DNA of 55,458 nucleotides from a bacterium (GTDB taxonomy: Bacteria; Patescibacteriota; Doudnabacteria; UBA920; VMFF01): contig JAJZOG010000007.1 of the NCBI GenBank assembly GCA_021811585.1, positions 1-55,458 of the forward strand, in the 5' to 3' direction. The notes under the pieces were generated by a model, which saw nothing but the letters and a program-made list of their open reading frames with translations, did not search any database and had not been told where the DNA came from. A program made the position numbers and the translations under genes. Each line of letters begins with the position of its first letter. Within the stretch, counting starts at the first letter, position 1. Of this stretch, positions 772-51,203 are shown in pieces.

Positions 772-848
772 ATCAGGAAGTGTTTTATGCCAGAGCTTAT
801 AAGCCGCTGTGAGTTTTTGTAACAGGGGAAGGTCAGTTGGTGCGTTTA

Positions 849-869
849 CTCTCTCTCTCTCTCTCTCTC
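849..869. repeat. (CT)10 dinucleotide microsatellite between avd and the RT
   Basis: ctctctctctctctctctctc is read directly from the sequence. Confidence 0.95.
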
Positions 870-887
870 GTTTTGTTCCGAAATTTT

Positions 888-2383: not shown

Positions 2384-2432
2384 TTTTCTTTTTATCCAAA
2401 TAAATTTTCTTATCCTTCAAAATAACCTTGCT

Positions 2433-3716
2433 TTATAAAAATTGTAGCATCTTTCTTTGTTCGTCCGGATCATCGGCATCACGGAACAAAGCCTTGGCAA
2501 ATCTGCGCAAGTCAATTGCTTTTTTCTCTAGCGTCCGATCAATTACAGGTTCGCCAGTAACAAAACTATGGAAGTCATACCATTTTTCAATTTCAGCATC
2601 AAGCTCGGCGCGCATCCCAAGCAAGTCTAAATCCACATCATCAATCATATCCGCAAGCTGGCTGATCAGGTCTTGTTCGTTTATATATGGCTGCCTGCAC
2701 TTCCAGTTTTTGCCGTGGCTGCAGCCGTAATATCTGTATATAGCAATCTCGCCAGTGCTAAGTTTTTTAAATTTTTCTTGGGCTGTGACCCCGGAACCGC
2801 AATCGCCGCATTTCATAAAATGCAGGAAATTAAACTGCTTAGTCAGCTTGTATTTTTTCTTGAATGTATGCTGATTAAGTTGATCCTGGACCAAGTCAAA
2901 TAATTCTTTGGTAATAATCGGCGTATGTTGGCCTTTGTACCATTTGCCGCTTTTTCTGGGATATTCAAAGTAGCCATAATAGAAAGGTCTTCGAAGTACA
3001 AGCTGGACAGTGCTCAGTGCAATTTTATTATCAAATTTTGTTTGAAATCCGGTATCTCTGAGCCAGAATAAAATATCATAGATGCTGCATTTTTCGTATG
3101 CCACCTTTTCAAACATCTTTTTGATCACCGGCGCCCTATCTGGGTCTATTTCTACTTGGCATGCTTTATCTTTTAAGTTTGAATTCAAATACCCAAGCGG
3201 AGCAACCCCGGGCCATAAGCCCATTTCAACCCTTGCCCTCATGCCGCGCTGGACGTTGACCCCGCGATTATCATTTTCGAGCTTTGCTTGGCTGCCCAAG
3301 ATCATTAAAAGAAATTTATCATTAGGGGAGTTGGTGAATATCTGGTTATAGGTCCTGATTTCTACCAGATGCCGGCTATCCATTAAATCAACAAGCCTGC
3401 CTAAATCACCGGCGTTGCGGCTTAGTCGATCTGGATTCCAGGTTAAGATAGCATTATATTTTCCAGCTTTTAGGTCTTCAACTATTTCGTTGAATACTTT
3501 TCTCTGCCCGGAATCTTTTGCTGAATGGGATTCGGTTTTCTTAGCAACGATTTTTAGGTTTTCACGCTCCGCAATGCCCAGCATCTCTTTGAGCTGGGAA
3601 TCAATTGACAATGCCTGGCGCTCCTCGGCCTCCATGGATTTTCTGGCGTAAAGGCAGTAGGTGAGTTGATGTGATTGTTCCTTGCTTTTTTGTTTCATTT
3701 CAAATTGTTGGACCAT
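2433..3716 (-). CDS. Large serine recombinase (phage-integrase type)
   Basis: It has an N-terminal resolvase/invertase domain (YCLYARKSMEAEERQALSIDSQ... with catalytic Ser), a recombinase domain and a Cys-rich zinc ribbon (CGDCGSG...YYGCSH). The C-terminal tail looks like a coiled coil. Confidence 0.9.
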   Translation of the reverse strand: MVQQFEMKQKSKEQSHQLTYCLYARKSMEAEERQALSIDSQLKEMLGIAERENLKIVAKKTESHSAKDSGQRKVFNEIVEDLKAGKYNAILTWNPDRLSRNAGDLGRLVDLMDSRHLVEIRTYNQIFTNSPNDKFLLMILGSQAKLENDNRGVNVQRGMRARVEMGLWPGVAPLGYLNSNLKDKACQVEIDPDRAPVIKKMFEKVAYEKCSIYDILFWLRDTGFQTKFDNKIALSTVQLVLRRPFYYGYFEYPRKSGKWYKGQHTPIITKELFDLVQDQLNQHTFKKKYKLTKQFNFLHFMKCGDCGSGVTAQEKFKKLSTGEIAIYRYYGCSHGKNWKCRQPYINEQDLISQLADMIDDVDLDLLGMRAELDAEIEKWYDFHSFVTGEPVIDRTLEKKAIDLRRFAKALFRDADDPDEQRKMLQFL

Positions 3717-4228
3717 TCAACTATCAATAAAGAACTTGCTGGTACCCCACAAGCTAAAGCTCCTTCAATAAATCTTATTTGAGGTTTGGTCAGGCGATCT
3801 TTGCCTTTATTTTTTGCTTCACAAAACAGCACGGTATTATCTTTCCAAGCCAATACATCAAAACAAGCTGTTGTTTTAGAGATTTTCCAAATTCTTTGTA
3901 ATAAGGATTGTTTATTTTCAGGAATTGATACATTATTTGATCTCAATTTCCATTCAGTAGGCATCTCTTTGAGAAAATTCGTGCCACCATATGTCTCAAC
4001 CCAGATTGACTGCCAACCGGCGTCGATCAGTATTCTGGATATTGCTAGTTCTGCAAAAACTGGTTTATTTTTATAGTCGATAATGGGTTTATTACCGTAA
4101 TCAAAAGTGGGTTTTGGCCCGGTCCATAGCTTGAAAGTCGGGTGGCAAATTGGCAAAGCCGTCATTATTCCCGAATTTAACTTTACTGAAAATTCTCCGT
4201 CAGATTTTAGCTTTTTTGGTAAATCCAT
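3695..4228 (-). CDS. VRR-NUC / PD-(D/E)xK-fold nuclease-like protein
   Basis: CFDVLAWKDNTVLFCEAKNKGKDRLTKPQIRFIE gives a D...ExK pattern plus the downstream Q, as in VRR-NUC domains. It overlaps the recombinase start by 22 nt. Confidence 0.55.
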   Translation of the reverse strand: MDLPKKLKSDGEFSVKLNSGIMTALPICHPTFKLWTGPKPTFDYGNKPIIDYKNKPVFAELAISRILIDAGWQSIWVETYGGTNFLKEMPTEWKLRSNNVSIPENKQSLLQRIWKISKTTACFDVLAWKDNTVLFCEAKNKGKDRLTKPQIRFIEGALACGVPASSLLIVEWSNNLK

Positions 4229-4240
4229 ATAGGTTTATAT

Positions 4241-4810
4241 TTAGATTAGACCCTCAGATTTTATTAACGATGTAACGCAAAGCGAATACTCTTTTTCTTT
4301 GGAGGATTCTATTAGAATTTGCTCTTTGATAGCATCTTTCTCATCTATTGGTACCAATAAATATAATCTGATGAGGAGTCTAATTTTATCCAATCTCTCA
4401 GTCCTCCTTTCTAATAAGGATGGTCGGTTGAGTTTTACTAAATCCAGGGTTTTTTCTCCCTTGTCATTTGTATTAATAGAAAAAATTATTGAGTTTAGAG
4501 CATGCAAAAATTGTTCAGGATCTTCTTGGTATGGGTTAATAAGTTTTTCGTCATATTGGTCATTTTTGTATTCACGATTGCATTTAGGGCAGGCATATCC
4601 TAGATTATCCCAATCAAATTCTAAATCTGGAAAAGAGGTCTTAGGTTTTATATGCTCAACATCGCCATAATCAATATGCTCAATACGACTCTCGCAATAC
4701 ATACATTTATTAAAGCTTGATTCCTGAAGTGCTTTCTTATTTTCTGGGTGTTTGTAGTTGCTGCGTAGGGCTGTGGGATTGGGGCAGGCCGGCCGTGTCA
4801 ATTTAATCAT
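4241..4810 (-). CDS. HNH endonuclease, TIGR02646/PtuB-like
   Basis: KCMYCESRIEHIDYGDVEHIKPK...WDNLGYACPKCNREYKND is an HNH core. The N-terminal KLTRPACP... and the C-terminal LNRPSLLERR segment resemble the Septu PtuB / retron-associated HNH family. Confidence 0.75.
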   Translation of the reverse strand: MIKLTRPACPNPTALRSNYKHPENKKALQESSFNKCMYCESRIEHIDYGDVEHIKPKTSFPDLEFDWDNLGYACPKCNREYKNDQYDEKLINPYQEDPEQFLHALNSIIFSINTNDKGEKTLDLVKLNRPSLLERRTERLDKIRLLIRLYLLVPIDEKDAIKEQILIESSKEKEYSLCVTSLIKSEGLI

Positions 4811-4971
4811 TGCGGTTTTGTAATTACATTATTAAGAGCATCAGGTAAAAGTCTTTCTAAACCGATGCTTTGTAATTCAGCACGCATATTAGATAACTCT
4901 TCCTTAGTAATTTTTTTTCCTGAATATTTTTCCACCAAATTTTTTAATTTTTCCTCTGCCCAGATCGGCAT
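4807..4971 (-). CDS. Possible 54-aa ORF translationally coupled to the HNH gene (not in the ORF track)
   Basis: MPIWAEEKLKNLVEKYSGKKITKEELSNMRAELQSIGLERLLPDALNNVITKPQ. Its TGA overlaps the HNH ATG (ATGA at 4807-4810). There is no convincing SD. Confidence 0.3.
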   Translation of the reverse strand: MPIWAEEKLKNLVEKYSGKKITKEELSNMRAELQSIGLERLLPDALNNVITKPQ

Positions 4972-4991
4972 CGTAAAGGATACGCCTGGAG

Positions 4992-6038
4992 TTGAACTTG
5001 CGCTTGAACCGCAACACCGGAGAGTTCGACTTCAATCTGCTTAAAGATTTTGGTGAAGATTTTCTGGCAGATATAGGTTTCTCAAGCGAGGAGTTAGATA
5101 GTGCTTTCGGCATAGATGAATCGCCGGAAGTGTTCAATCTTGAAAAAGAATTGCAAAAGCTAGATATTAAAAAAGTGCAGCTGAAAACAGGTGATATGCT
5201 GGATCTTGATGGCAGCAGGCTTTTGGTTGGCGACTCAACCAAAGAAGCAGACATGCTGAAACTGTTTGGCAGCGAGAAAGCAGATATGTGTTTTACAGAT
5301 CCGCCATATTTGCTCGACTACCTGCATGGCAAAAAGAAAAAGCAGTCAACAAAAGGTTTTGGCCTTAAACGCGATAGAACCTATCTTGGCACAGAGTCGC
5401 TGCCTGAGAATTTTACCGACCTTTGGATGGCCAACATAGCCAAAATTCAAAAGCCAGACTTCTCCATAATCGTATACGAAAATCCAAAAAATCTGCGCAC
5501 GATTTGGAATGCGCTCGATAAGCATTGGAAGTACCGTAACACCATAATCTGGCATCTGCCTAACCGGGTGCAGGGGTTTGCTGCTAAGTATAAGTTCTTC
5601 AACAAATATGATTTTTCAATTCTTGGAACTTCTGGAAAGGTATTATTGCATGATGAGCCAGAAAGCAATCCGTTGTTGCAGGAGGAATACGAAGCTGCCT
5701 TGTTTGCCACGTCAGGCAGCCCGACCTGGGAGAAGTATGAAAAGGGTAAAAAATACTGCCCAACTGACTTTATTGAATACAAGGCAAGCGATGCCAAAAG
5801 CTCAGGCCAAGGTATTATCTTTGGAACAAAACCAGTTGAGATCCTAATACCATACATAAAAATTTTGACTAAACGCGGCGACTTGATAGCAGAACCATTT
5901 GGCGGTTCAGGATCCACTTTGATTGCTGCCACCAAGATGCAGCGCAGGTGTTTTGTTATGGAAAAAAGCAATATCTATGCCGAGGTAATCCGAAAGCGCT
6001 GGGAGAAGCTAACCGGCAAGAAAGCGAGACTTATATGA
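4992..6038 (+). CDS. DNA methyltransferase (N6-adenine/N4-cytosine, beta class, PF01555-like)
   Basis: DPPY motif (CFTDPPYLLDY) precedes the SAM motif FGGSGST. The N-terminal linker (GFSSEELDSAF...GDMLDLDGSRLLVGDS) is as in phage ParB-methylase fusions, but without the ParB domain. TTG start is uncertain. Confidence 0.85.
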   Translation: MNLRLNRNTGEFDFNLLKDFGEDFLADIGFSSEELDSAFGIDESPEVFNLEKELQKLDIKKVQLKTGDMLDLDGSRLLVGDSTKEADMLKLFGSEKADMCFTDPPYLLDYLHGKKKKQSTKGFGLKRDRTYLGTESLPENFTDLWMANIAKIQKPDFSIIVYENPKNLRTIWNALDKHWKYRNTIIWHLPNRVQGFAAKYKFFNKYDFSILGTSGKVLLHDEPESNPLLQEEYEAALFATSGSPTWEKYEKGKKYCPTDFIEYKASDAKSSGQGIIFGTKPVEILIPYIKILTKRGDLIAEPFGGSGSTLIAATKMQRRCFVMEKSNIYAEVIRKRWEKLTGKKARLI

Positions 6039-6484
6039 GCGGCAAAAATCTAAAACAGAAACAGCAGAAAACTGCGCTAGTTGAGCAACTTAAAAAAATG
6101 CCGATCATAGAGGTCGCCTGTAAGCGCATGGGTATAAGTAGGGCAGCTTACTATGTTTGGCGAAAGCAAGACATTGAATTTGCCAACATGGCTGATACTG
6201 CGATTCAAGATGGCGTCTTGTATATTAATGACCTTGCAGAATCAGGGTTGCTGTCTCAGATCAAGGACAATGATTTACAAGCAATTAAATTTTGGTTAAT
6301 CCATAGGCACTCAGCGTATGCTGCCAAACTTCAGGTTAACGCCAATCTCAATGCCTTCCAAGAACAATTAAGCCCTGACCAACAAAAAGTGGTAGATGAG
6401 GCGCTGCGTCTGCTATCGCTTAGCGATGGCGAGGAAGTAACAAAAGGAGAAAAAGAAAATGAAACTGACGCCGGAAATAATTAA
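6035..6484 (+). CDS. Terminase small subunit-like HTH protein
   Basis: Start ATG 6035 overlaps the methylase stop (ATGA). MSGKNLKQKQQKT...IIEVACKRMGISRAAYYVWRKQD is an HTH. It sits immediately upstream of, and overlaps, the large terminase. Confidence 0.6.
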   Translation: MSGKNLKQKQQKTALVEQLKKMPIIEVACKRMGISRAAYYVWRKQDIEFANMADTAIQDGVLYINDLAESGLLSQIKDNDLQAIKFWLIHRHSAYAAKLQVNANLNAFQEQLSPDQQKVVDEALRLLSLSDGEEVTKGEKENETDAGNN

Positions 6485-8024
6485 GCGCATGCACAATGAC
6501 CGCGATATTAGGAGAGCTATTACCAAGCGCAGCTTTGAAGCCTTTTTCGGCTATTATTTTGGCGATTACCTTGAATATGAAAGTGCCCCATTCCATACCC
6601 AAATGTTTAAGCTTTGTGAGAACGACAATACTAAATTGATTGTAATCAAAGGTTTCCGCGAAAGCGCCAAGTCCACCCTAATGGCTCAAGCCTATCCAAT
6701 TTGGGCGGCTATATCAGGTCGCGCTAAAGAAATAGTGGTAATTAGTAAAACCCAAATGCTTGCCCGCCATTTGCTTAAAAATATCCGCGCTGAACTGGAA
6801 GAAAATAAGTGGCTTATTAATGATTTTCAACCGTATGATTTTATGGAAGATCAGTCGGGTGCTTATGCGGTTACTTTAAAACGCTATCATTCAGAAATTA
6901 TTGCGGTATCGCGCGATCAAGGCATTCGCGGCATTCGACATCGCCAGCATAGGCCAGGTCTAATAGTCATTGACGATGCTGATGATTTGGCAAGCGTTAA
7001 AACTCAAGAATCCAGAGACGATACCTGGAACTGGCTAATGCGCGACATTATTCCTTTAGGCAGCAAGAATACTAAAATGGTAGTGCTTGGTTCGCCACTA
7101 CATGACGACAGCATGATCATGAGACTCAGCAAATCTATTGCTGATGGACTTATGAAAGGTGTGGCTCTTCATATTCCCATAGTTGATGACGCGGGCAAAC
7201 CAACTTGGCCTGCAAAGTTTCCAACCCAAGCAGATATTGAGGAGGCACGCAGTAAAATGGATGAATTAGCTTGGCAAAGGGAAATGATGCTAAAGATAGT
7301 TCCCGAAAATGGACAAATTATCAGCCGTGAGGATATATCTTTTTATGATGAGCAGCCACTTAGGTCAGATTCTAAATCTGAGTTTATTGAACGGATCGGT
7401 TCAATTGATTTTGCTTTAAAAGACAAGCAATCTGCTGATTTTACAGCAATGGTTGAAGGAGATATTTATGGATATGACCAAGAACGAGTTATATATATTC
7501 AGCCAAATCCGTTAAACAAAAGATTGGAGTCACACCAGGCGCTAAACGAAGCGGTCCTGCGTTCCAATCCGCCAGGATCTAAATATCCAAACAAGCTTGT
7601 TGTTGAAGACGTTGGCGCCTCAATAGTTTTTATTGACCTGCTAAAGCAAAGCCATATTCCAGTTCAAAGTTTCCAGCTTAAAAGCCAAGATAAACGAGAG
7701 CGATTTTCCATAGCCGCAAGCTGGATTAAAACCGGCAGAGTAAAACTGCCGCGTCATGGCTGCGAGCGGCTCATTGAACAAATAGTAGGCTTTGGAACAG
7801 AGCGTTTCGATGACCTTTTGGACGCGCTTGTTCAACTGATCATTTATGTCATGGAAAATAATGGCGGAAAAATGGGAGGAATAGTGTCAATAGATTTAGG
7901 AATTGATTATAACCTTGAAGGCGGACTGCTTCCTGCCAATTATAGGCCACCACATCTTTTGCCACTTAGACGAAGCACGAATATAAATAACATCTTGGGT
8001 AAAAGCAGATATCTTAGAGACTAA
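6459..8024 (+). CDS. Phage terminase large subunit
   Basis: Walker A-like GFRESAKST and Walker B LIVIDDADD. The C-terminal RNaseH-like nuclease part has IDFALKDKQSADFTAMV, VEDVG and FDDLLDALV. SD aaaggag lies upstream. Confidence 0.85.
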   Translation: MKLTPEIIKRMHNDRDIRRAITKRSFEAFFGYYFGDYLEYESAPFHTQMFKLCENDNTKLIVIKGFRESAKSTLMAQAYPIWAAISGRAKEIVVISKTQMLARHLLKNIRAELEENKWLINDFQPYDFMEDQSGAYAVTLKRYHSEIIAVSRDQGIRGIRHRQHRPGLIVIDDADDLASVKTQESRDDTWNWLMRDIIPLGSKNTKMVVLGSPLHDDSMIMRLSKSIADGLMKGVALHIPIVDDAGKPTWPAKFPTQADIEEARSKMDELAWQREMMLKIVPENGQIISREDISFYDEQPLRSDSKSEFIERIGSIDFALKDKQSADFTAMVEGDIYGYDQERVIYIQPNPLNKRLESHQALNEAVLRSNPPGSKYPNKLVVEDVGASIVFIDLLKQSHIPVQSFQLKSQDKRERFSIAASWIKTGRVKLPRHGCERLIEQIVGFGTERFDDLLDALVQLIIYVMENNGGKMGGIVSIDLGIDYNLEGGLLPANYRPPHLLPLRRSTNINNILGKSRYLRD

Positions 8025-8048
8025 AAAATAATACCGGCTTTGCCGGTA

Positions 8049-8432
8049 TTATTCGCGTTCAATCCTAACTATAACCAAGTATCCGTTATGGTAGTTTTCA
8101 TCATATCCACGAATCATTCTCCACACAGTGTTGGTTAAATTTGATTGGTATTTTTTGAATTCAGCCTTAAACGCTTTTTTGTATTTCCCATAAAGTTCAT
8201 CAGGAAAAACCACTTGTATTGTTGGGAAATCTTTTTCATCTTTTCCCCAATCAACCATTTTTAGAATATTGGCTTTGGGACAAGCAGCAGAAATACGCTG
8301 TGAAATTTCTTTGATAAATCTATCAATTTCAAAGCGGTTATATGCCTTAGGAGAATCCATATCCTTAATATTAAAAAATAAAGCAGGGATATTTACAGGG
8401 AGAATACCTTTATGTTTGCGGGTTTCTTGCAT
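8049..8432 (-). CDS. Hypothetical protein
   Basis: 127-aa ORF. On its strand TATAAT (8444-8439) lies 6 nt upstream of the ATG, so the transcript may be leaderless. Confidence 0.55.
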   Translation of the reverse strand: MQETRKHKGILPVNIPALFFNIKDMDSPKAYNRFEIDRFIKEISQRISAACPKANILKMVDWGKDEKDFPTIQVVFPDELYGKYKKAFKAEFKKYQSNLTNTVWRMIRGYDENYHNGYLVIVRIERE

Positions 8433-8487
8433 ATTTCAATTATACACCCATCCTGGACTTATGTTAGATGTTGCGGTACTGTCTGCT

Positions 8488-8680
8488 TGGCTAAGACAAG
8501 ACAGTGTAATTAACAAAATCAAAGGGTTTTTGAGCCTACCTAGCTGACATTGAGAAAATTAGACAATTTAACTATAATTACATTAACAACTGAATAAATT
8601 CAGTAGCCTAAACCAGGAGAAATTTTGGCATGGCTAAATCCACAGAAATGCGAAGACGGTCACCTGTCTTGTCTTAGCCA
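8488..8680. repeat. Perfect 17-bp inverted repeat pair (8488-8504 and 8664-8680) bracketing a 159-bp segment
   Basis: tggctaagacaagacag at 8488-8504 is the exact reverse complement of ctgtcttgtcttagcca at 8664-8680. Confidence 0.9.
8550..8578 (+). promoter_or_regulatory. Near-consensus sigma70-type promoter facing the gene at 8767
   Basis: TTGAGA (8550-8555), 17-nt spacer, TATAAT (8573-8578). It lies inside the inverted-repeat-bracketed segment. Confidence 0.6.
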
Positions 8681-8766
8681 TTTCTGTGGTCCCTAGCCGA
8701 AAGGTTAGGTGGGGCAAGCGGGTGGCCCTTTTTGATAACTAAAAACCCCGCGGAAAGAAAAATTGT

Positions 8767-9729
8767 ATGAGCGGTTTATTTGTATTCCTGCTCCTAATAT
8801 CAATAGTGTGTCTGGTGCTGGGACTAATTATGCCAGCTTGGTTTAATAAGGTGTTTAGGGGCAGCGCGTCAAGAAAGAAAATTGCCATAACTTTTATAAG
8901 TGCAATAATAGTTTTCTTCGTACTAATAGGGGTAACATCTCCCAAGACAACTATATCTCAGAAACAAGTAATAGACACCACTTCAAAAACAACCGCTAAT
9001 CAGCAAGTGGCTCAATCAACCCCACAGTCTACTAGCAACTCGGTAGCTACAACGTCAGCAAGTTCGGCCATAATTCCGCAGCCAATAAAAACACCGCCAG
9101 CCTCTATTGTCAAAAATATTCCTACACAAATTACTAAACCTAACACAACAACATCATCCAACACTACTACACCTGTCACACAATCGAGTCAGCCTGCTAC
9201 AACACCAACCCCACAGCCTACGCCGGCTCCACCAGCACCTAAATCACCTGCTACTAGTTTTGGTGATGGAAACTATGTTGTGAGTACTGATATTCAACCT
9301 GGCACTTATAGAACTCGTGTCGGATCACCTGGATGCTACTACGCTCGCTTGAGTGGGTTTAGCGGTTCAATGGACGAGATACTGGCGAACAACAATACTG
9401 ATTTTCCAGCAGTAATTACAATACCGTCTTCCGACAAAGGATTTCAAAGTTCTAGTTGTGGAACTTGGACTCAAGACCTCTCTGAAATTACCAGTAGCCA
9501 GACATCTTTTGGTGATGGCATATTTATTGTAGGAACTGATATGCTGCCAGGTACCTATCGTAGTTCAGGTTCCACAGGTTGTTATTATGCCAGAGTGAGC
9601 GGTTTTAGCGGCACCGATGGTGAAATATTGGCTAATGATAATACCGATACTGCAGCTGTCGTAACCATACTCGCTAGTGATAAGGGATTTGTGTCATCCA
9701 ATTGTGGAACGTGGGTTAAAATTGATTAA
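8767..9729 (+). CDS. Membrane-anchored protein with a Thr/Ser/Pro-rich linker and two tandem ~75-aa Cys-containing domains
   Basis: N-terminal TM helices. The repeats are TSFGDGNYVVSTDIQPGTYRTRVGSPGCYYARLSGFSG...SSCGTWTQ and TSFGDGIFIVGTDMLPGTYRSSGSTGCYYARVSGFSG...SNCGTWVK. Confidence 0.75.
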   Translation: MSGLFVFLLLISIVCLVLGLIMPAWFNKVFRGSASRKKIAITFISAIIVFFVLIGVTSPKTTISQKQVIDTTSKTTANQQVAQSTPQSTSNSVATTSASSAIIPQPIKTPPASIVKNIPTQITKPNTTTSSNTTTPVTQSSQPATTPTPQPTPAPPAPKSPATSFGDGNYVVSTDIQPGTYRTRVGSPGCYYARLSGFSGSMDEILANNNTDFPAVITIPSSDKGFQSSSCGTWTQDLSEITSSQTSFGDGIFIVGTDMLPGTYRSSGSTGCYYARVSGFSGTDGEILANDNTDTAAVVTILASDKGFVSSNCGTWVKID

Positions 9730-9761
9730 AAAATAACTGTAAAAAAGATAGAGCAAAAACT

Positions 9762-10202
9762 ATGAATGAAAACAATACAAGTTTAATACAGAGTATTGGT
9801 AGCAGGGGTAGAAAATTGCTAAAAGAAAATATTGGACAAGACGAAAAAATCTTGATTGAGTTGCAGGGTGCCTTTGGGCAGGTTTTAGTAGTTACAGATA
9901 AACGCTTGTACATTATCAAGTGGGGATTTATGGCTGGCAGCACTTTTGGCGGCAGATGTCTGGCATTTGAATTCAAGAATATAACGGGTGTAAAAATCAC
10001 TAAGAATTTTGTAACCGGCGAATTTGAGATTGTTAGCCCTGGTAATCAGGATAATCAAAAAACTTATTGGGGTATGACTAATCGCACTGATGCTAATAAA
10101 GCTGATAATGTGGTGGTTTTCCGCAGAAAGAGCTTTGGGCCTTTCCAGCAGGCTGCCAACTTGGCTAGGGACTTAATTAATCAAGCACATAGTAAGAGTT
10201 GA
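9762..10202 (+). CDS. Hypothetical protein, possibly a bacterial PH-like domain
   Basis: 146-aa ORF. ILIELQGAFGQVLVVTDKRLYIIKWG...VKITKNFVTGEFEIV resembles YokE/bPH-type domains. Confidence 0.5.
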   Translation: MNENNTSLIQSIGSRGRKLLKENIGQDEKILIELQGAFGQVLVVTDKRLYIIKWGFMAGSTFGGRCLAFEFKNITGVKITKNFVTGEFEIVSPGNQDNQKTYWGMTNRTDANKADNVVVFRRKSFGPFQQAANLARDLINQAHSKS

Positions 10203-10409
10203 TTTGTCAATTTTCTCTGAGTAAAAAGTATTAATTTTTTAGAAGAACACGGCTATCGTCCGTGTCCTTCGCTCCCAATTTAATGTAGACATTTTGAAAA
10301 CTAAACATGTCTCATGTTAGCACTTTTTGAATATTGTATAAGGCTAAAATGAGGAATTTTCAAGGGGTTTTATAGGTCTGGACAGGGCAGGCGGATTGCG
10401 TCATTCATT

Positions 10410-10793
10410 GTGTTACCTGGGGCAAAAGAGCTTCTAGGTAGAAAGGAATATATGAATGAGGTAATGAACGCTGGACTTATGCAGGCTGCTCCTGTGCAGG
10501 GGGTGCATGGGGAGTTGTCTCGTTTGAATTCTGAGTATCCCGGAGAAACGATTCCTTGGAATGGAAATGACGTTTTAACTATTTCGATGCAGGAATATGA
10601 ACGGGCGGTAGAAACTCTTCTGCATTTAAAAGATGTCTTTGCGTTGCCGCAAGACTTGGAACATATACACTGGCAGAGTGTGAATAGAAACTCTTTTTCA
10701 CCAGATTTTGTTACTCGTGTTAATCATACCTTGGTCAATGTTTCAAATCTGGGTCCGTTTTTTTTCCAACCGGGACTCGAACCTGAAAAATAA
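10410..10793 (+). CDS. Hypothetical protein (start uncertain; first ATG at 10452)
   Basis: ORF track only; no recognisable motifs. Confidence 0.4.
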   Translation: MLPGAKELLGRKEYMNEVMNAGLMQAAPVQGVHGELSRLNSEYPGETIPWNGNDVLTISMQEYERAVETLLHLKDVFALPQDLEHIHWQSVNRNSFSPDFVTRVNHTLVNVSNLGPFFFQPGLEPEK

Positions 10794-10923
10794 GGAAAAA
10801 TTCACAAACAGATCCTGAGCAATATAAAATCCACAAACCTAGTTTTGTGGATTTTATATCTGACCTCAATGTTTATGGGTACTTTTGCGTACAGCACCTG
10901 GGTCAGGTTGAACGTGTTGAATT

Positions 10924-10998
10924 TGGCTCGAGAGGTGGGATTCGAACCCACAACCAACCGGTTAACAGCCGGTTGCTCTACCGTTGAGCTACTCTCGA
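10924..10998 (-). tRNA. tRNA-Asn (anticodon GTT), CCA encoded
   Basis: The reverse complement is TCGAGAG-TA-GCTC-AACGGTA-GAGC-A-ACCGG-CTGTTAA-CCGGT-TGGTT-GTGGG-TTCGAAT-CCCAC-CTCTCGA-G-CCA. This is a 75-nt full cloverleaf. Confidence 0.95.
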
Positions 10999-12711: not shown

Positions 12712-13296
12712 TTAGATTAAAACAATAATCCAAACTGCCAACAAAATTATCTCCAATATGAGAACGGGCATGGCCTTTTCCGCATAGTGGTGTAGGAAAT
12801 TTTTCCAGTAGCCAAAAAATCTTTTACCGCTGATTTCTTCTTTTACCCCGGGCTCTTTAAGCGCGTAAAAATTTTTGCGGAAAGGCCAAAGCCATTTCAC
12901 ACCTCCTTTAATTGAATCCAGGGCAAAATGGCTCCAGGGTGCAATCCAGACAATTAGTCCGATGTATTTCCAAAATTCTGCGAGTGTCGCGGCGTTTGCA
13001 TTTTGGGTTTGGCTACGGCCGAAAACCGCGGCAGCCGCATAAATTATTATGCCTGCGCAAAACCATAGAAACGGCCTGTGGGTGGGGAAGCGCCTGTGAT
13101 TGATTTGTGTGCCGGGGATTGTGAAGCCGTGCGCCTGGGCAAACGCTACGAACATATCCAAATCCGGCGCAAAGCCAAAAGCCGCGCCGATCCACGGCAG
13201 GGCGCGGAGTTCGTTTGCCGGCAAATTCGGCTTGCCGATTTTTATAAGCAAATCAGCTGTTAAATATCCAGCTGCAATGTGTCCCGGAGGCAGCAT
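12712..13296 (-). CDS. YdjM-like (DUF457) membrane-bound metal-dependent hydrolase
   Basis: MLPPGHIAAGYL...PDLDMF...HRRFPTHRP...WSHFALDS follows the pattern of the YdjM family. Confidence 0.6.
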   Translation of the reverse strand: MLPPGHIAAGYLTADLLIKIGKPNLPANELRALPWIGAAFGFAPDLDMFVAFAQAHGFTIPGTQINHRRFPTHRPFLWFCAGIIIYAAAAVFGRSQTQNANAATLAEFWKYIGLIVWIAPWSHFALDSIKGGVKWLWPFRKNFYALKEPGVKEEISGKRFFGYWKNFLHHYAEKAMPVLILEIILLAVWIIVLI

Positions 13297-13340
13297 ATGT
13301 TTTTACGGGTTTTTTTATGGGTCCCCCCAAACCTAAAAAT

Positions 13341-13393
13341 GGGTCCAACCCAAACCCCCAACCTAAACCCCTAATCTAAATCCCCAATCTAAA
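13341..13393 (+). repeat. Solo arm (C-rich orientation) of the G-tract palindromic element; inverted partner at 15951-16003
   Basis: gggtccaacccaaacccccaacctaaacccctaatctaaatccccaatctaaa matches the reverse complement of 15951-16003 at 51/53 positions. Confidence 0.9.
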
Positions 13394-13701
13394 TCTGGAG
13401 TTTTTGGGAGAATGGTTGCATTTAATAATAATTTAATTTTTGTAGGGCAATTTCAATTTTACTTTATGATCCGTCAATTTTCAAGGAATTCCTAGGGAAT
13501 TTTTATCAAAATCAACTGAAACGCGCGCGAGTTTTGTACGTTATATGAGGTGTAAGGCCGGGAAAAGAGGCGGAATTAATCATATGTTAATTTTTTCCGC
13601 GCATCCGGAGGATCCGGCCTTCTTTGGGTTAAATTCTTTGGTCGGCTTTTAGCCCAATCCTGCCACGTTTGCGCCTGCTAATGCTCGGCGAGGTGCAGCG
13701 G

Positions 13702-13727
13702 AAACGCCCCGATAGCGGGGCGTTTTT
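13702..13727 (+). terminator. Intrinsic terminator-like hairpin
   Basis: aaacgcccc-gatagc-ggggcgttttt. Confidence 0.6.
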
Positions 13728-13863
13728 AAATTGTTTTTAAATTCTAGCTGGTTTGAGCCGCGCTTATCTGCGTTTGCCGTGTTTTAATTATGCTTTTTTG
13801 CCGCATTTTTTCCCGTGTTTTCAGGACTGTCCGTTTCCCGGGTTTTCCTGCTACACTATATAT

Positions 13864-15219
13864 ATGATAGAGGAAATTGGAAATCTTCCCGGATATGAAC
13901 TTTTGGACAGCGGGCTTTTTAGTTTTGCGGGTGGTTTTGCGGGTGGTGGATCGAAGGGTGCGCTAAAAGGCGCATCGGAATCGAAAAGATTGGATGAAGT
14001 GAAAAGTGTTTCAGCCGCACCGGGCGCGGTGTCGAATAGCGCATCAAAAAAATTTGATTCAGTGCAGGATGCGGATGCCGAAGGATATCGCCTGGAGCGC
14101 TTCGGTGATTTTATTTTGGCGCGGCCCGATCCTGCTGCAATTTGGGAAAAAGAATTGCCGCAAAGCGAATGGGAAAAAGCGGATGCGTTTTTTGCGCGCG
14201 CAAAAAACGCGGCAAATTTCGCGCCGGAGGTTTCAGCGTCCAACGGCGCGGCTTCGGATGCGACTAAAGGCAAATGGATCCTCAAAAGAGAAATCCCCGA
14301 GCAGTGGCTCCTGCATTTTCTCACCGGCACGCCGCTGGAAATTTCTTTTTATGCGCGCCTGGCTCCTTTTAAGCATACGGGAATTTTCCCCGAGCAATCC
14401 GCGAATTGGAATTTTATAGTTGAGCAAGCGAAACGGATCGAGAGCAGGAAACAGATGGCCCGCCAAAATTTTGCAGAAGATTCATTGGAAAATTCATTGG
14501 AAGATTCATCGAAAAATGCTTCGGAAAATCCGCTGAAAAATTCCGCACAAAATTCCGCAAAAAATTCATCGGAAAATCCATCTAAAACTTCATTCGAAAA
14601 TTTCAAGGTGCTTTCTCTTTTTGGGTACACCGGGATCGCAAGCGCGCTTTGCGCAAAAATCGGCTGGGAGGTGACGCACGTGGATGCTTCGCGGCCTTCA
14701 ATTTCTTGGGCAAAAGAAAACATGCTGGCCTCCGGATTGCCCGGCGATTCCATCCGCTGGATCTTGGAAGACGCTTTGAAATTTGTTAAGCGCGAGGCGC
14801 GCCGCGGTGCGAAATACAATGCTTTCATTTTGGATCCGCCTGCTTTTGGGCGCGGTGCAAAAGGCGAGGTTTGGAAATTTAACGAGGATTTGCCAAAACT
14901 CATGTTCGCTTTGCGCGAAATTTCGGCGCCGCCCGAGGAGTTTGAATTCGCAATTGTAAATGCTTACGCGGTTTCAGCGCCATCGCTTCTGTTAAAAAAT
15001 TTATTGGATGATTTTGCGCGGGGGATTGGGCTCGAAGTTGGCGCTGATCAAAGTACAATCTCAAATCACAATGCCGCCTTTTTGGACACCGCCGCCCTCG
15101 CCAATACCGTCGAAGCAAAGAAAGCGGTTATTGATTACGGCGAACTTATTTTGCGGCAAAGCTCAAACCCAAAACGTTTGCTTTCCACCGGGAATTTCGG
15201 AAGACTTTATACGCATTAG
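13864..15219 (+). CDS. Class I SAM-dependent methyltransferase (RlmI/YwbD-like, PF10672-type) with low-complexity inserts
   Basis: VLSLFGYTGIASALCAKIG...THVDAS...FILDPPAFGRGAKGEVWKF. The likely start is the ATG at 13864 (MIEEIGNLPGYELLDSG); the tracked ORF starts at 13753. Confidence 0.75.
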   Translation: MIEEIGNLPGYELLDSGLFSFAGGFAGGGSKGALKGASESKRLDEVKSVSAAPGAVSNSASKKFDSVQDADAEGYRLERFGDFILARPDPAAIWEKELPQSEWEKADAFFARAKNAANFAPEVSASNGAASDATKGKWILKREIPEQWLLHFLTGTPLEISFYARLAPFKHTGIFPEQSANWNFIVEQAKRIESRKQMARQNFAEDSLENSLEDSSKNASENPLKNSAQNSAKNSSENPSKTSFENFKVLSLFGYTGIASALCAKIGWEVTHVDASRPSISWAKENMLASGLPGDSIRWILEDALKFVKREARRGAKYNAFILDPPAFGRGAKGEVWKFNEDLPKLMFALREISAPPEEFEFAIVNAYAVSAPSLLLKNLLDDFARGIGLEVGADQSTISNHNAAFLDTAALANTVEAKKAVIDYGELILRQSSNPKRLLSTGNFGRLYTH

Positions 15220-15242
15220 TTTCGCCGGCAAAATACAAAAAC

Positions 15243-15887
15243 GTGGAGAAATTCCTAACATTATATAGAGAGGCAATTAAAAATCGCGGCTTATTTTTTT
15301 TGGCTTTGTCGGGTGGAAAGACGCCGAGAAAATTTTATGCCAAACTTGCGGAGCTCCCGGAAAGGGAAATAGATTGGTCCAAGGTGCATTTTTTTTGGAG
15401 CGATGAGCGCATGGTTGCGCACGACAACGCGGAAAGCAATTTTAGAATGGCTTATGATTCGCTGATTTCAAAAATAAAAATTCCGGTTGAAAATATTCAC
15501 GCGGTGCGTACTGATTTGCCGCCGCGAGCCGCTGCCGTGGAATATGAAAATGAAATAAAAAAGATTTTGGGATCCGTGAATTTTGATTTAATTTTGCTTG
15601 GAATTGGGCCGGATGGCCATACGGCTTCTTTGTTTCCGGCAACGAAAGCGCTTAATAAAAAGTTAATATTTGTCGCGAATAATTTTGTCCCAAAATTGAA
15701 CGCCTGGCGCATAACTTTTACTTTTCCGTTGATTAATGCCAGCCGGTGTGTGATGTTTGTGGTGGATGAATCTGATCCTCAAAAGGCCGAAATAACGGCT
15801 AAGATTAAAAAAGGGCCGGACCCGAATTTACCCGCATCCCTTGTAAAAACAGCTGATATTGAATGGTTGGATGTCTCGAAATTATAA
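15243..15887 (+). CDS. pgl: 6-phosphogluconolactonase
   Basis: FLALSGGKTPRKFY, HFFWSDERMV and LILLGIGPDGHTASLFP are the family motifs. Confidence 0.85.
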   Translation: MEKFLTLYREAIKNRGLFFLALSGGKTPRKFYAKLAELPEREIDWSKVHFFWSDERMVAHDNAESNFRMAYDSLISKIKIPVENIHAVRTDLPPRAAAVEYENEIKKILGSVNFDLILLGIGPDGHTASLFPATKALNKKLIFVANNFVPKLNAWRITFTFPLINASRCVMFVVDESDPQKAEITAKIKKGPDPNLPASLVKTADIEWLDVSKL

Positions 15888-15950
15888 ATTCGGTTGGCTC
15901 AGAAATTTTTTGCAAACTCAAAATCGCTTCCCGGCGATTTTTTAGATTGG

Positions 15951-16003
15951 GGGTTTGGATTAGGGGTTTAGGTTGGGGGTTTGGGTTGGACCCGTTTAAT
16001 AAA
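15951..16003 (+). repeat. Solo arm (G-rich orientation) of the G-tract palindromic element
   Basis: tttagattgggggtttggattaggggtttaggttgggggtttgggttggaccc. Confidence 0.9.
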
Positions 16004-16104
16004 AAGTTAATCTTTTTTATATACGATAAAGGTGCGGTGGAAAAAGTGTCGAAAACACCTTTTTCTCACTGCAAATGAGAATCCAAAAAGGAGGATCTTT
16101 CACA

Positions 16105-16938
16105 ATGGATACTGAATTTGGGTATTGGCAGAGGATCAACCGCAACCTGGGTATAATCTCTTATTCTGATCAGCGGCGGCTCAAGCATGCCGCTGTGGCG
16201 ATAGCCGGCTGCGGCGGAATGGGCGGGCTTATTGCCGAGCGCCTGGTTCGCGCGGGCATTGGCAAAATTATTTTGGCGGACAACCAGCAATTTGAGATTT
16301 CAAATTTGAACCGCCAGTTTGCGTCCAAACGAAAAACCATCGGCGCAAACAAAGCCCTAAGCGTACGCGATGAAATTCGGGAAATCGTGCCTGCAAATGA
16401 ATGTGCCGTCACTGTCTTGACACAAGGCGTTACGGAAAAAAACGCCGCGGAGTTTGTCAGAAGCGCGGATATTGTTTGCGACGAAATCGAATTTTTCGAA
16501 ATCGCGGCGCGCGTGCACTTGCACAAAGCCGCGCGCGCAGCGGGCTTGCGCGTCCTGAATTGCAATGTGGTTGGCTTTGGCACGAGAATTTTCCTGTTCA
16601 CGCCCGCGAGCATGACCATGGAAGATTTCTTGGAAGTTGAAGCTGAAACCCCGCTGGACGAAAATGTTATATCGCGCCTGGTCAGCCGCCTGGCGCCGGA
16701 ACTGCCTGCTTACATGAATCAGGATTTGATCTATGACTGGGTTTTCAAAAATCACAGGGCGCCAATTTTTGGGGTGACACCGGCGCTAAGCGCCGGCATT
16801 GTCGCCAACCGAGTGGTTATAGAACTGCTTGGCGCTGATGGCAAACCCGAAATAGAACCCTTGGTTCCCATGCCTGCTTATGTGGCTTTTGATTGCGCGA
16901 ATTTTAAAGTGAGCAAATTCGTAGGCAAATGGTGGTAA
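16105..16938 (+). CDS. ThiF/MoeB/HesA-family E1-like adenylyltransferase
   Basis: SD aaaggagg lies upstream of the ATG at 16105. Rossmann motif VAIAGCGGMGGLIAERLVRAGIGKIILADNQQFEISNLNRQ. Confidence 0.8.
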   Translation: MDTEFGYWQRINRNLGIISYSDQRRLKHAAVAIAGCGGMGGLIAERLVRAGIGKIILADNQQFEISNLNRQFASKRKTIGANKALSVRDEIREIVPANECAVTVLTQGVTEKNAAEFVRSADIVCDEIEFFEIAARVHLHKAARAAGLRVLNCNVVGFGTRIFLFTPASMTMEDFLEVEAETPLDENVISRLVSRLAPELPAYMNQDLIYDWVFKNHRAPIFGVTPALSAGIVANRVVIELLGADGKPEIEPLVPMPAYVAFDCANFKVSKFVGKWW

Positions 16939-22877: not shown

Positions 22878-23111
22878 TTAATCGATTCTGATAATTTTAG
22901 GAGTTAAAAATTCCTGCTCGAAAAAGACCTTGGGCAAAGCTTGTGATTGTTCCATCTCCGTTTTTCTGCGCCGGCGTTCTTTCTGCAGATCCTGTTTTGC
23001 CGCCTGCTGTTCTTCGAATTCGAGCTTTTCCAATATCAAATGATATGTCTTAAGCGGAATAAACGGTTTAATTTTTTCAAGTTTTTCGCGTCTGGTCATA
23101 CGGGTCGTCAT
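22878..23111 (-). CDS. Small charged hypothetical protein
   Basis: MTTRMTRREKLEKIKPF... has its first ATG 2 nt from the repeat element; the second ATG is at 23099. The tracked ORF extension MGWTR is encoded by the repeat. It ends 6 nt before the next gene. Confidence 0.5.
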   Translation of the reverse strand: MTTRMTRREKLEKIKPFIPLKTYHLILEKLEFEEQQAAKQDLQKERRRRKTEMEQSQALPKVFFEQEFLTPKIIRID

Positions 23112-23113
23112 AC

Positions 23114-23294
23114 GGGTCCAACCCAAACCCCCAACCTAACTCCCCAATCTAAGGACACGATTGTGGTGTTTAGGCAAGTGTTTTAATAATATTTTAATTG
23201 AGTTTCCCTTATATATTGCATAAATATCCTTAGATTGGGGGTTTGGATTAGGGGTTTAGGTTGGGGGTTTGGGTTGGGGTATTGGGTTGGACCC
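23114..23294. mobile_element. 181-bp MITE-like palindromic element, copy 1
   Basis: 41-nt C-rich left arm (23114-23154), 73-nt AT-rich core and 67-nt G-tract right arm (23228-23294). It differs from 50997-51177 by a single base. Confidence 0.85.
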
Positions 23295-25374
23295 AAAGTT
23301 CCAACAAAGTTTCGCAGGCATCTTCAATAAAGCGCTTCACGGGCCGCGCGCCAAAACGATAATCCGCAAGCGCCCTGATTTTTTCGCGCAGAATTTCGGG
23401 GTCGATTTTAAATTTAATGCCGTGTTCGTCTCCGGCACGCTCCTCAATTTTTCGAATCTCCGCTCTGGCAATTTCCAAAAGCTCCGCCTCTCCAAGCGGG
23501 TTGAAGACAATTATCGCATCAAAACGGTTCAGGAATTCAAGTTTAAAATTTTGCGTCAAAATCGGCATCATTGTTTTTTTCAAAAATTCCGCGCCGGAAA
23601 CGTTTTCTCCTCGCTCAAAAGCATCCACGAGTTCCGCAATCCCCAAATTGGAAGTGGCGATGATAATCGTATCCGAAAAATTTACCGTCTGTCCTTGGCC
23701 GTCGGTAAGCCGCCCGTCTTCCAAAACTTGTAAAAAAATATCGAAAATTTTTGGATGCGCTTTTTCAATTTCATCAAGCAAGATCAGCGAATATGGCTGG
23801 TTTAAAACAGCGTTGGTAAGCTGTCCTCCGGATTCGAAGCCAATATATCCAGGCGGCGCGCCGATCAGGCGCTGCTGCGCGTGCGCTTCGGAAAATTCGC
23901 TCATGTCAATGCGCACGAAAGCGCGTTCAGATCCGAAGACGCTTTTGGCAAGAACTTTGGAGAGTTCGGTTTTCCCGACACCCGATGGCCCCAAAAACAG
24001 GAACGAACCGTTTGGTCTTCCGGGGTTCCGCAGCCCAATTATGCTCCTGCGCACAACTGCTGCCACGATTTTTGCGGCTTGTTTTTGCCCGATTATATTT
24101 TTATTAAGTATTTCTTCAAGATTAAGTTGTGGATTTGGATCAGCCGCTTGCCGTGTCTCGCGCTCTTTTTTAAGCCCTGCTCCGCGTTGCTTGTTCATTA
24201 CTGTTTCGTGTCCCGCTGTTGATATCCTGCCGTCATACCCCTCTGTGGATATCATGTTGCCGCGTTTCGTAATTACCCCCAAAGGCGCGTTTGTGGAATT
24301 TGAGGATGTCCCCAAAGGAGTATTTGCAAAATTCGCTGCCGGCCCTAAAGGCACGCCGGTTTTTTCGGAATAGATTTCGCGAATTTCTTTTTTGCTGAGC
24401 TCTTTTAATCCCGAAATTTTTGCGAATGCCAGGCATTCATCCAAAAAATGAATGGCGCGAAGTGGAAATTTTTTTTCCGAATTCATTTTAGCCGCAAGTT
24501 CAACGATGCTTTTAAACGCGTCGGTGCGCACGCGCACACCGTACTGTTTTTCAAAAGCAGGGGACAACGCGCGCAGAATTTCTTCGCTTTCTCGGCTGTC
24601 GTGCTGGGCGATGCGAATCTCCTCAAAGTTTTTTAAGAACCCCGGGGTCTCTGCGGCAATGCGCGCATATCCTTTTTCAGTCATCGCCAAAATCAAACTG
24701 ACTTCGTTTTTCTTAAAAAACGGATCCAGCACTTGCGCGGTTTCATAGAGCCGCCCTTCCAGACAAACATTCTCAAAATCATCGATGAAAATAATTGAGC
24801 GTTCGGGAATTTTTTTGAATGCCGCGCTAAGATAATTAAATCCTTCTTGCGTGCCGACTTGCGCGAAAAGTTTTTTGAGGTTGCCGCTATCAAGGCGCGC
24901 AAGAGAGTAATTTTCAAAACCGAAAATCGCATTTTTTGCATTGTTTTCCGTGCCATTTGATTTTCGGTTAGCTGCATCGTTTCCTATGCCGTTCGCTCTT
25001 TTATCTGTTGTGTTTATGGCAGTGCTATTTTTAGTGTTGTTTATGCTGCCATCCACAGTCCCGCTCATTCTTTTGTTTATTGCGTTTGTGGCAGTGCCAT
25101 TCCCGGTGCCGCCATTCCCGGTGCCGCCATTCCCGGTGCCGCCATTCCCGGTGCCGCCATTCCCAGTGCCGCCATCCACAGCGCCGTTTGCCGCGCGATA
25201 AAAGAAGGCCTCCACGAGCGCGGTTTTCCCCGTGCCGCTTTCGCCGCGCACAATTATATTATTGTTGTACTGGCGTTTGAGCGTCCGCGCCATGCGCCTA
25301 AGCTCGGCCTCGCGTGTAATCGCATCGCCAATGCTCTTTCGTTTTGCTTCTTGTTTTAGATCGTAGTAAATCAT
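23248..25374 (-). CDS. Clp/Hsp100-family double-AAA+ ATPase (ClpB/ClpC-like) with large low-complexity inserts
   Basis: D1 has RGESGTGKTALVEAF and IIFIDDFE. D2 has FLFLGPSGVGKTELSKVLA...LIGAPPGYIGFESGGQLT...ILLDEIEKAHPKIFDIFLQVLEDGRLTDGQG. The last ~15 codons and the stop lie inside repeat copy 1. Confidence 0.85.
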   Translation of the reverse strand: MIYYDLKQEAKRKSIGDAITREAELRRMARTLKRQYNNNIIVRGESGTGKTALVEAFFYRAANGAVDGGTGNGGTGNGGTGNGGTGNGGTGNGTATNAINKRMSGTVDGSINNTKNSTAINTTDKRANGIGNDAANRKSNGTENNAKNAIFGFENYSLARLDSGNLKKLFAQVGTQEGFNYLSAAFKKIPERSIIFIDDFENVCLEGRLYETAQVLDPFFKKNEVSLILAMTEKGYARIAAETPGFLKNFEEIRIAQHDSRESEEILRALSPAFEKQYGVRVRTDAFKSIVELAAKMNSEKKFPLRAIHFLDECLAFAKISGLKELSKKEIREIYSEKTGVPLGPAANFANTPLGTSSNSTNAPLGVITKRGNMISTEGYDGRISTAGHETVMNKQRGAGLKKERETRQAADPNPQLNLEEILNKNIIGQKQAAKIVAAVVRRSIIGLRNPGRPNGSFLFLGPSGVGKTELSKVLAKSVFGSERAFVRIDMSEFSEAHAQQRLIGAPPGYIGFESGGQLTNAVLNQPYSLILLDEIEKAHPKIFDIFLQVLEDGRLTDGQGQTVNFSDTIIIATSNLGIAELVDAFERGENVSGAEFLKKTMMPILTQNFKLEFLNRFDAIIVFNPLGEAELLEIARAEIRKIEERAGDEHGIKFKIDPEILREKIRALADYRFGARPVKRFIEDACETLLELWVQPNTPTQTPNLNP
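25096..25170. repeat. 15-bp tandem repeat x5 inside the Clp-like gene (encodes GGTGN x5)
   Basis: gccattcccggtgcc x4 plus gccattcccagtgcc. Confidence 0.95.
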
Positions 25375-26870: not shown

Positions 26871-27155
26871 CCTATGTTGTATTGAATTATTATCAGAGCA
26901 TTGCGTGCGCATCCACACCGACGGACTTGTCCGCGAAAATAAAAACGCCATCAGCAGGGATGGTGTTTGTGGCGCCATTTTCCTGCTCGGGAAAATTTCG
27001 AAGTTTGGTATCTGGCTTGTCCCGATTTCTCGGGATTTACAGTTGCGGCACAGCGCCGGAATCGCACCGGCTTCCCAACTAGTTTTCAAATTTCTGTCTC
27101 AATCTTAGCGCGGACGTTTTTGAATGTCAAATTTTTCAGGAAACCGAAGGTTGCC

Positions 27156-41101: not shown

Positions 41102-41189
41102 TAAGGTGTGTAATCGGCTTGATTAACTTTTTTAATCTTTAACAAAAGATTAATTTCGCAACGAATAATTAATTTAAATTTAATCTCAT

Positions 41190-42430: not shown

Positions 42431-42525
42431 GAGATTATTAAATTAAAATTAAATTAATGAGAATGGGGATGGAGGACAAGTTGATTAATAAAAAGTTAAT
42501 CGGATTTATAGGAGGATAAGCCGGA

Positions 42526-51177: not shown

Positions 51178-51203
51178 TATCATTCTATGTTATAATTTCT
51201 CAT

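Follow-up and report, generated by a model that had tools for sequence, protein, structure and literature searches.

In the genome of an uncultured bacterium of the Doudnabacteria, two copies of a short inverted repeat bracket a block of about 2.5 kb that holds non-coding DNA, a gene for an RlmI-like methyltransferase and a gene for 6-phosphogluconolactonase (6PGL). The stretch analysed here, referred to as the window, comprises the 55,458 nt of contig JAJZOG010000007.1 (assembly GCA_021811585.1) and also contains two complete 181-bp elements. The locus raises the question of whether the two genes are the cargo of a mobile element bounded by the arms, or whether they were in place before the arms arrived. 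The former had been proposed in a sequence-only reading of the window, in which the bracketed segment was a cargo-containing version of the 181-bp elements, related to them as a parent or composite element is to a MITE (miniature inverted-repeat transposable element). Our results contradict this claim, because the closest relatives have the gene block in synteny with the genes that lie beyond either arm in the window, and they have no arms. Very probably, the two arms are independent solo arms of a multi-copy foldback, MITE-like repeat that lie on either side of an ancestral, vertically inherited gene block.

Structure of the bracketing arms

A repeat search of the window paired positions 13337-13393 with 15941-15997 (57 nt, 95% complementary, 54/57, with a spacing of 2547 nt), and a direct scan gave 51/53 complementarity for 13341-13393 against 15941-15993. 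The longest perfect run between the two arms is 36 bp. The inverted repeat that had been reported from the letters alone is thus real, although its right arm had been placed 10 nt too high, at 15951-16003, where there is no match. Arms are built of tandem 13-bp units (consensus GGGGGTTTGGRTT on the G-rich strand) with the outward end TTGGACCC, and the bracketing arms have four units each. The left solo arm (13341-13393, outer end at 13341) carries its C-rich strand on the plus strand, and the right solo arm (15941-15993, outer end at 15993) carries its G-rich strand there.

At three or fewer mismatches, the window has six occurrences of the 27-nt arm terminus, while 0.00 occurrences are expected from 100 shuffles, a frequency far beyond chance. 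The four occurrences outside the bracket are the arms of the two 181-bp elements, at 23114-23294 and 50997-51177, and a search for arm units elsewhere in the window returned a single one-mismatch match only. The shared terminus and the tandem 13-bp units confirm the earlier proposal that the bracketing arms belong to the same family as the 181-bp elements.

Within this family, both bracketing arms are of the right-arm type and do not form a left and right pair. The right solo arm, which has no adjoining core, is one 13-bp unit shorter than the right arm of the 23114 element and otherwise identical to it, and the likeness of the bracketing arms to each other is therefore at the level of the family and does not mark them as a special pair. 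Inside the left arm, a stretch on the plus strand (13394-13437) of 28 nt followed by TTAATAATAATTTAAT has the spacing found in the element core at 23155-23198. This stretch looks like a diverged core fragment, and the left arm would then be a diverged element without its second arm. Immediately beside the left arm (13300-13340), degenerate extra termini can be read from the sequence: 12 nt are duplicated in tandem (TTTTTACGGGTT/TTTTTATGGGTC), and next to them is a mini-arm that has been truncated, ATGGGTCCCCCCAAACCTAAAA. The outer flanks of the 2.65-kb unit read ...CCTAAAAAT up to the left arm and GTTTAATAAAAAG from the right arm onwards (AAAAAT and GTTTAA at the two junctions), and no direct repeat that could be a target-site duplication was found in these flanks.

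Synteny of the gene block with relatives

Relatives were chosen from homologues of the methyltransferase, and their contigs were compared with the window. The closest relative found with enough flanking sequence, L119, has the same order and orientation as the window: g177, the YdjM gene (minus strand), the non-coding block, methyltransferase, 6PGL, ThiF, a gene encoding a 193-aa protein (p193; 196 aa in L119) and a histidine kinase. The corresponding tblastn identities are 55% for g177, 72% for YdjM, 58% for the methyltransferase, 64% for 6PGL, 76% for ThiF, 60% for p193 and 53% for the histidine kinase. Identity is thus 58-64% inside the bracket and 53-76% outside, such that the two supposed cargo genes are neither more nor less diverged than their neighbours. 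In L003, the pair of YdjM (minus strand) and methyltransferase genes is repeated. The order in L002 is methyltransferase, ThiF, a 188-aa protein, kinase and regulator, followed by the TrwB-like, small and AAA genes of the window, without 6PGL. The more distant L006 has methyltransferase and 6PGL together and, further along, the regulator, TrwB-like, small, AAA and PaaX-like genes. A protein-guided scan of GTDB with the methyltransferase alignment gave, among the matches listed, distant relatives only (43% identity or less).

Neither arm unit arrays nor the GGGTCCAAC terminus were found in L002, L003, L004, L119, L120 or L121 or at the L006 locus, and both L119 spacers that correspond to the sites of the arms (between YdjM and methyltransferase, and between 6PGL and ThiF), when read directly, are arm-free. 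Separately, L006 carries a lone 14-nt exact match to an arm unit (GGGGGTTTGGGTTA, 9915-9928, E about 0.05), located ~75 nt upstream of its methyltransferase gene.

Native sequence lies close to both arms. About 470 nt of non-coding DNA separate the left arm from the methyltransferase gene, and within it lies a conserved block on the plus strand (13519-13727), a candidate small RNA or leader that ends in a strong intrinsic terminator (13700-13727). Its counterparts are found at 1227-1450 in L119 and 2255-2478 in L003, and the sequence blocks and the terminator are common to both; since both relatives are arm-free, the non-coding block is native. On the other side, the ThiF-family gene (16075-16938, plus strand; the feature including its upstream region spans 15996-16938) is native and is preceded by the motif TTAATAAAAAGTTAATCTTTTTT, which starts 2 nt outside the right arm. 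This motif is kept upstream of ThiF in L119 (22/23) and L002 (21/23), which places the right arm between the 6PGL terminator and the native upstream motif of ThiF.

The synteny comparison had been set beforehand as the refuting test of the cargo claim. It found genes that are syntenic and vertically inherited, with the arms absent from the relatives, and it points to independent insertions. Two independent solo arms had in fact been listed as an alternative in the sequence-only reading, and it is this alternative that the collinear relatives, the arm-free spacers and the right-arm type at both ends support.

Insertion of the complete 181-bp elements

In the first complete foldback element (23114-23294), a left arm of three units and a right arm of five enclose an AT-rich core of 77 nt; the element lies between an AAA-ATPase gene and a small downstream gene. 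The second (50997-51177) is nearly identical to the first and lies in the divergent spacer between smpB and argS. The arms of the element measure 41 and 67 nt, and as single-stranded DNA it folds at -45 kcal/mol (z = -8). A scan with the sigma-70 consensus detected no promoter inside the 181-bp element.

Judging from the sequences of relatives, these elements are true insertions. The spacer between smpB and argS is 33 nt long in L120, 106 nt in L121 and 209 nt in the window (181 + 28), and the smpB start codon and the -10-like box of argS, TATGTTATAAT, flank the element at homologous positions. A gene of 79-85 aa begins within the AAA-ATPase gene in L002 and L006, while in the window the element at 23114-23294 separates the two. 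The insertion has left its mark on both neighbours. The frame of the ClpB-like AAA-ATPase continues for 15 codons within the right arm before it terminates (...CETLLEL followed by WVQPNTPTQTPNLNP and a stop codon; 23248-23300, minus strand), so that its tail WVQPNTPTQTPNLNP is encoded by the element and replaces the native tail of L002 and L006; the alignment with L002 ends at residue 693 of 708. The small gene beyond the AAA-ATPase starts 2 nt past the left arm. At the second element, the public gene call places the start of ArgRS (698 aa) at a TTG within the right arm (51165-51203), while the start homologous to those of L120 and L121 is the ATG at 51204. We also considered the arms as suppliers of stop codons in all three frames; this is true for one arm only, and the idea was rejected.

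Copy number and distribution of the repeats

The sequence was detected in only two mine-drainage metagenome runs of one study (X1 and X2), which we examined as Logan contigs; X1 presumably corresponds to the source run, SRR13221994. By the named homologues of its ArgRS, which are from Candidatus Doudnabacteria and Patescibacteria (50-58% identity), the host is an uncultured bacterium of the Candidate Phyla Radiation (CPR) from mine drainage. In run X1, unique flanks have a depth of 26-38x and the bracketed block has 30.9x, compared with 26.1x and 32x in its flanks. The bracketed block is single-copy by this measure. Individual arm and core contigs in X1 reach 80-263x (core contigs 171x, with depth up to about 430x), each 3-8x the flank depth. 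Summed over contigs, the arms reach 850-1560x against ~32x for the flanks, a figure that is inflated by overlapping contigs. Overall, depth in the metagenome suggests roughly a few dozen copies of the arms, provided that all of them are placed in one genome. The same data suggest roughly 5-12 cores overall, with about 5 exact copies of the core and about 3 of a variant with an 87-nt core, and a 54-nt X1 contig of the right-arm type stands at about 6-7x flank depth.

Eleven flank or junction sequences at loose ends of X1 and X2 contigs are absent from the window, showing that the repeat family is dispersed beyond it. Solo arms appear to be common in the family, because arms outnumber cores and some of the loose-end arms run straight into unique sequence. 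Apparent joints that skip from 13389 to 15940 were considered as signs of excision or inversion and rejected, as they are 181-bp elements aligned across both arms.

Outside these runs, the exact arm pattern GGTTGGGGKWTTGGGTTGGACCC had no match in GTDB representative genomes or in JGI metagenomes, the shorter arm terminus GGGGKWTTGGGTTGGACCC had none in IMG/VR viral contigs, and blastn of the 181-bp element against plasmids and phages had none either. A relaxed two-unit pattern found nothing in viral contigs. In metagenome contigs it returned 30 loci, all of them unrelated G-rich or telomere-like repeats, many at contig ends, and none had the TTGGACCC terminus or an inverted partner; these candidates were rejected.

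Origin of the arm pair

Based on these findings, we propose that a non-autonomous foldback repeat spread in this lineage after its split from the sampled relatives. The block of non-coding DNA, methyltransferase and 6PGL would have been there first, and two arms would have arrived later and independently in opposite orientation, one in the spacer between YdjM and methyltransferase and the other in that between 6PGL and ThiF, making the inverted repeat incidental. The family may spread, or may have spread, by transposition catalysed in trans, and the solo arms may be single-arm insertions or else elements that have decayed or been truncated. There is no sign that the block has at any time moved as a unit, and the sole present capacity of the arm pair would be that of a substrate, perfect over 36 bp, for rare homologous inversion.

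It should be noted that several points weigh against this proposal. The X1 Logan contigs miss the inner junctions at 13396-13424 and 15854-15938, which are supported by the window assembly alone, while the neighbouring unique sequence is present at about 30x in X1. Contigs alone are blind to inverted or excised forms that a minority of cells may carry. At about 55-75% amino-acid identity, the relatives are too distant for a base-by-base alignment of the empty sites. In addition, we found no target-site duplication at any copy, nor does a direct repeat flank either 181-bp element, and we know of neither a transposase nor an autonomous element that shares these ends, so that transposition is what we infer.

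Arms at gene starts and a possible role in the host

The position of the arms relative to genes allows a more ambitious account of the family. In the two 181-bp elements and in at least two further X1 copies, an arm terminus lies 0-2 nt from a CAT with which a gene directed away from the arm starts. The ATG of smpB is native, which suggests a site preference for gene starts and not an ATG brought by the element. Furthermore, 12-nt tandem duplications straddle the outer arm junction at three independent loci (23095-23118, 13300-13322 and one X1 copy). Each duplication unit is made of 3-7 nt of arm terminus and 5-9 nt of flank, and two of them duplicate a start codon and three codons.

A second feature of gene starts in this genome is the motif TTAAT-N6-TTAAT, with 21 matches in the window where 0.5 are expected, mostly just upstream of gene starts. 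Examples are found at 15996-16011, 41169-41184, 23183-23198, 51066-51081 and 13422-13437, and on the minus strand at 42722-42737 and 42442-42457; in front of genes that resemble rpmI and rplT, the motif stands 4-11 nt from the ATG. The relatives L002, L119 and L120 have it as well, and one copy is present in the core of each 181-bp element. The motif is probably a lineage-specific promoter or regulator motif.

These features could be explained by a foldback element of Patescibacteria that has not been described before, that prefers the promoters and start codons of (often leaderless) genes and brings boundary signals with it, the solo-arm pair being a by-product. We regard this as a tentative account with a rather small chance of being correct. 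The boundary signals in such an account could be stop codons for the inbound gene, a G-rich leader abutting the outbound ATG and the copy of TTAAT-N6-TTAAT in the core, an assignment that we hold to be similarly doubtful. The gene-start features keep this more interesting reading of the family open, but they do not rescue the cargo hypothesis.

Alternatively, the arms may have a function in the host, for example as arrays of binding sites for a DNA-binding protein, or as G-quadruplex insulators or 5'-region modules kept beside promoters and gene starts. Of the six arms in the window, five direct their G-rich strand towards a gene start or promoter within about 80 nt, 4 or 5 of the 12 known termini abut a CAT start codon at 0-2 nt, and the TTAAT-N6-TTAAT motif present in the core shows an enrichment of about 40-fold ahead of genes in this genome; the runs of G would also be compatible with a quadruplex. 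However, none of the relatives examined has the arms in its orthologous spacers, and the genes therefore work without them. One convergent gene has had its tail replaced by a right arm that runs into its 3' end, and the two 181-bp copies are nearly identical, which points to recent copying and not to conserved function. We consequently consider a host function quite unlikely.

Inversion, cargo and assembly

An invertible segment had also been listed among the alternatives in the sequence-only reading. Recombination between the arms would flip the 2.5-kb block, either by a programmed site-specific system or in occasional events of the RecA type, and the inverted arms (36 bp perfect, 54/57 overall) would be sufficient for rare homologous exchange. 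Yet the orientation of the block is that of the arm-free L119, and the arms have YdjM, ThiF, p193, the histidine kinase and the response regulator as neighbours and no site-specific recombinase adjacent to them. The sole recombinase in the window is a large serine recombinase (2433-3716), located ~10 kb away in a separate mobile-element-like cluster. The block moreover consists of complete transcription units, with its own terminator and a -10-like box before the methyltransferase ATG, so that flipping it would switch nothing obvious. For these three reasons (orientation, the lack of an adjacent recombinase and complete transcription units) a programmed switch is unlikely. No contig contains an inverted junction, although contigs are blind to rare forms. 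Taken together, programmed and occasional inversion of the block is decidedly improbable.

The proposal that the arms are the ends of one 2.65-kb transposable unit carrying methyltransferase and 6PGL has in its favour that the arms are inverted, identical at 51/53 positions and drawn from a family whose complete copies are real insertions, and that composite transposons can form by two independent insertions around host genes. Against it, the block occupies its ancestral place in the ancestral orientation and is collinear with outside genes in L119, L003, L002 and L006, and it is single-copy by depth. Both of its ends are of the right-arm type, the right one without adjoining core, and no direct repeat surrounds the unit. 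There is no transposase between or near the arms, and none was found in the 55-kb window. We therefore judge a composite or cargo-carrying element to be very improbable.

Finally, it is extremely improbable that repeat-induced misjoining during assembly put arms at both spacers: the X1 Logan contigs do break at both arms and miss 13396-13424 and 15854-15938, but an X1 contig of 7171 nt links the interior of the right solo arm (15967), by way of ThiF, with the left arm of the 23114 element, an X2 contig spans the flank, left arm, core and right arm of that element, and the gene order across both arms is that of L119.

A MITE-like element with housekeeping cargo would have been notable if true; as the claim does not hold, the finding at this locus is an ordinary one. 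What remains is a small, lineage-restricted repeat family in a CPR genome, with an unusual arm architecture and a conspicuous presence at gene starts. The lineage is poorly studied, and the literature searched yielded no description of such repeats in CPR genomes. The arms also have practical consequences, in that they break assemblies and mislead gene callers, as in the call of argS from a TTG inside an arm, and one arm has rewritten the C-terminus of a protein, the AAA-ATPase.

Genes within and beside the bracket

The contents of the bracket are largely as had been described from the letters alone, with an RlmI-like methyltransferase, 6PGL, a non-coding block and no transposase. The stretch that had been described as structured is the conserved non-coding block with its terminator, and its predicted folding energy is unremarkable (z = -1.7 and -1.0 in single-sequence folds, not significant). 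At a permissive threshold (E ≤ 10), Rfam gave chance-level matches on the terminator only for 13300-13900, and none for the non-coding block. To the left, outside the arm, lies the gene for a YdjM-family membrane protein (12712-13296, minus strand), which is 72% identical to its L119 orthologue at the matching position.

The methyltransferase gene (13864-15219, plus strand) encodes an RlmI-like class I S-adenosylmethionine (SAM) methyltransferase with a weak match to PF10672 and with homologues named 23S rRNA C1962 methyltransferase. It carries three lineage-specific low-complexity inserts (13915-14080, 14476-14602 and 15050-15130) that are absent from nine homologues, and one of these inserts is an in-frame array of a 12-nt repeat in 10.6 copies. 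The ArgRS of this genome is likewise ~100 aa longer than the ArgRS of relatives. The 6PGL gene follows at 15243-15887 on the plus strand (PF01182, E = 1.7e-61). Downstream of ThiF are, in order, the p193 gene, the histidine kinase and the response regulator.

A -10-like box stands directly upstream of the methyltransferase ATG, in relatives too. In both the methyltransferase gene and argS, the TATAAT-like box ends ~6-7 nt before the ATG (13845-13866 and 51185-51206 in the window), and such boxes are likewise found in L002 (5575-5593), L006 (9985-10003) and L120 (5983-6003). This spacing suggests that the mRNAs of the methyltransferase gene and argS may be leaderless or have very short leaders.

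Other features of the window

A mobile-element-like cluster occupies 837-10998 and ends at a tRNA-Asn (10924-10998). It encodes a reverse transcriptase (837-1898), the large serine recombinase (2433-3716), an HNH endonuclease (4241-4810), an N6/N4 DNA methylase (4992-6038) and a terminase-like helix-turn-helix (HTH) protein (5948-6484), and contains a LOOT RNA (8605-8728). No Pfam family matched an open reading frame of 3853 aa (28493-40054, plus strand), whose span includes many tandem repeats. The window also contains a transfer-messenger RNA (tmRNA; 44022-44412, plus strand) with the tag ARVKNAFANAFAFQPALA, and a cobalamin riboswitch (26986-27122, minus strand) directly downstream of a minus-strand PaaX/Cas2-like gene.

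Comparison with known systems

Among known repeats, we compared the family with bacterial MITEs, such as the Correia elements and other non-autonomous elements with terminal inverted repeats (reviewed in PMC3184786). Like these, the 181-bp element is small and non-coding, has terminal inverted repeats and folds back strongly as a single strand, and the family has multiple copies, is found at the boundaries of genes and is missing from the orthologous sites in relatives, although only in distant ones. Unlike them, its arms consist of 3-5 tandem 13-bp G-rich units that differ in number between left and right, many arms stand alone, no target-site duplication is seen and no parent insertion sequence (IS) with matching ends is known.

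Repetitive extragenic palindromes (REPs) are associated with RAYTs and are imperfect palindromes, about 20-40 nt long, that carry a conserved GTAG head (PMC2817692). REPs and REPINs share with the present family that they are short extragenic repeats that occur both as inverted doublets capable of forming hairpins and as singlets, comparable to the 181-bp elements and the solo arms. The arms described here, however, are non-palindromic, comprising 41-67 nt of tandem 13-mers, and no RAYT gene is present in the window or known from this genome.

The locus resembles IS-flanked composite transposons in having two inverted copies of a repeat family around host genes, but it differs in that these copies are single arms without a transposase, the genes are syntenic, the unit is single-copy and no direct repeat flanks it. 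Integron attC sites were considered and rejected: the termini fit RYYYAAC...GTTRRRY, a match made post hoc and with a modest chance probability, but the adjoining genes (smpB, argS and the AAA-ATPase) are conserved syntenic host genes and there is no integrase in the window.

The ends of Tn7, Mu and IS21 contain several direct copies of a short transposase-binding motif, and their copy number is unequal between the two ends. The 181-bp elements are alike in that their ends are made of a repeated short motif with unequal copy numbers. They differ in that the 13-mers are contiguous, that the termini (GGGTCC...GGACCC) match none of those families and that no cognate protein is identified.

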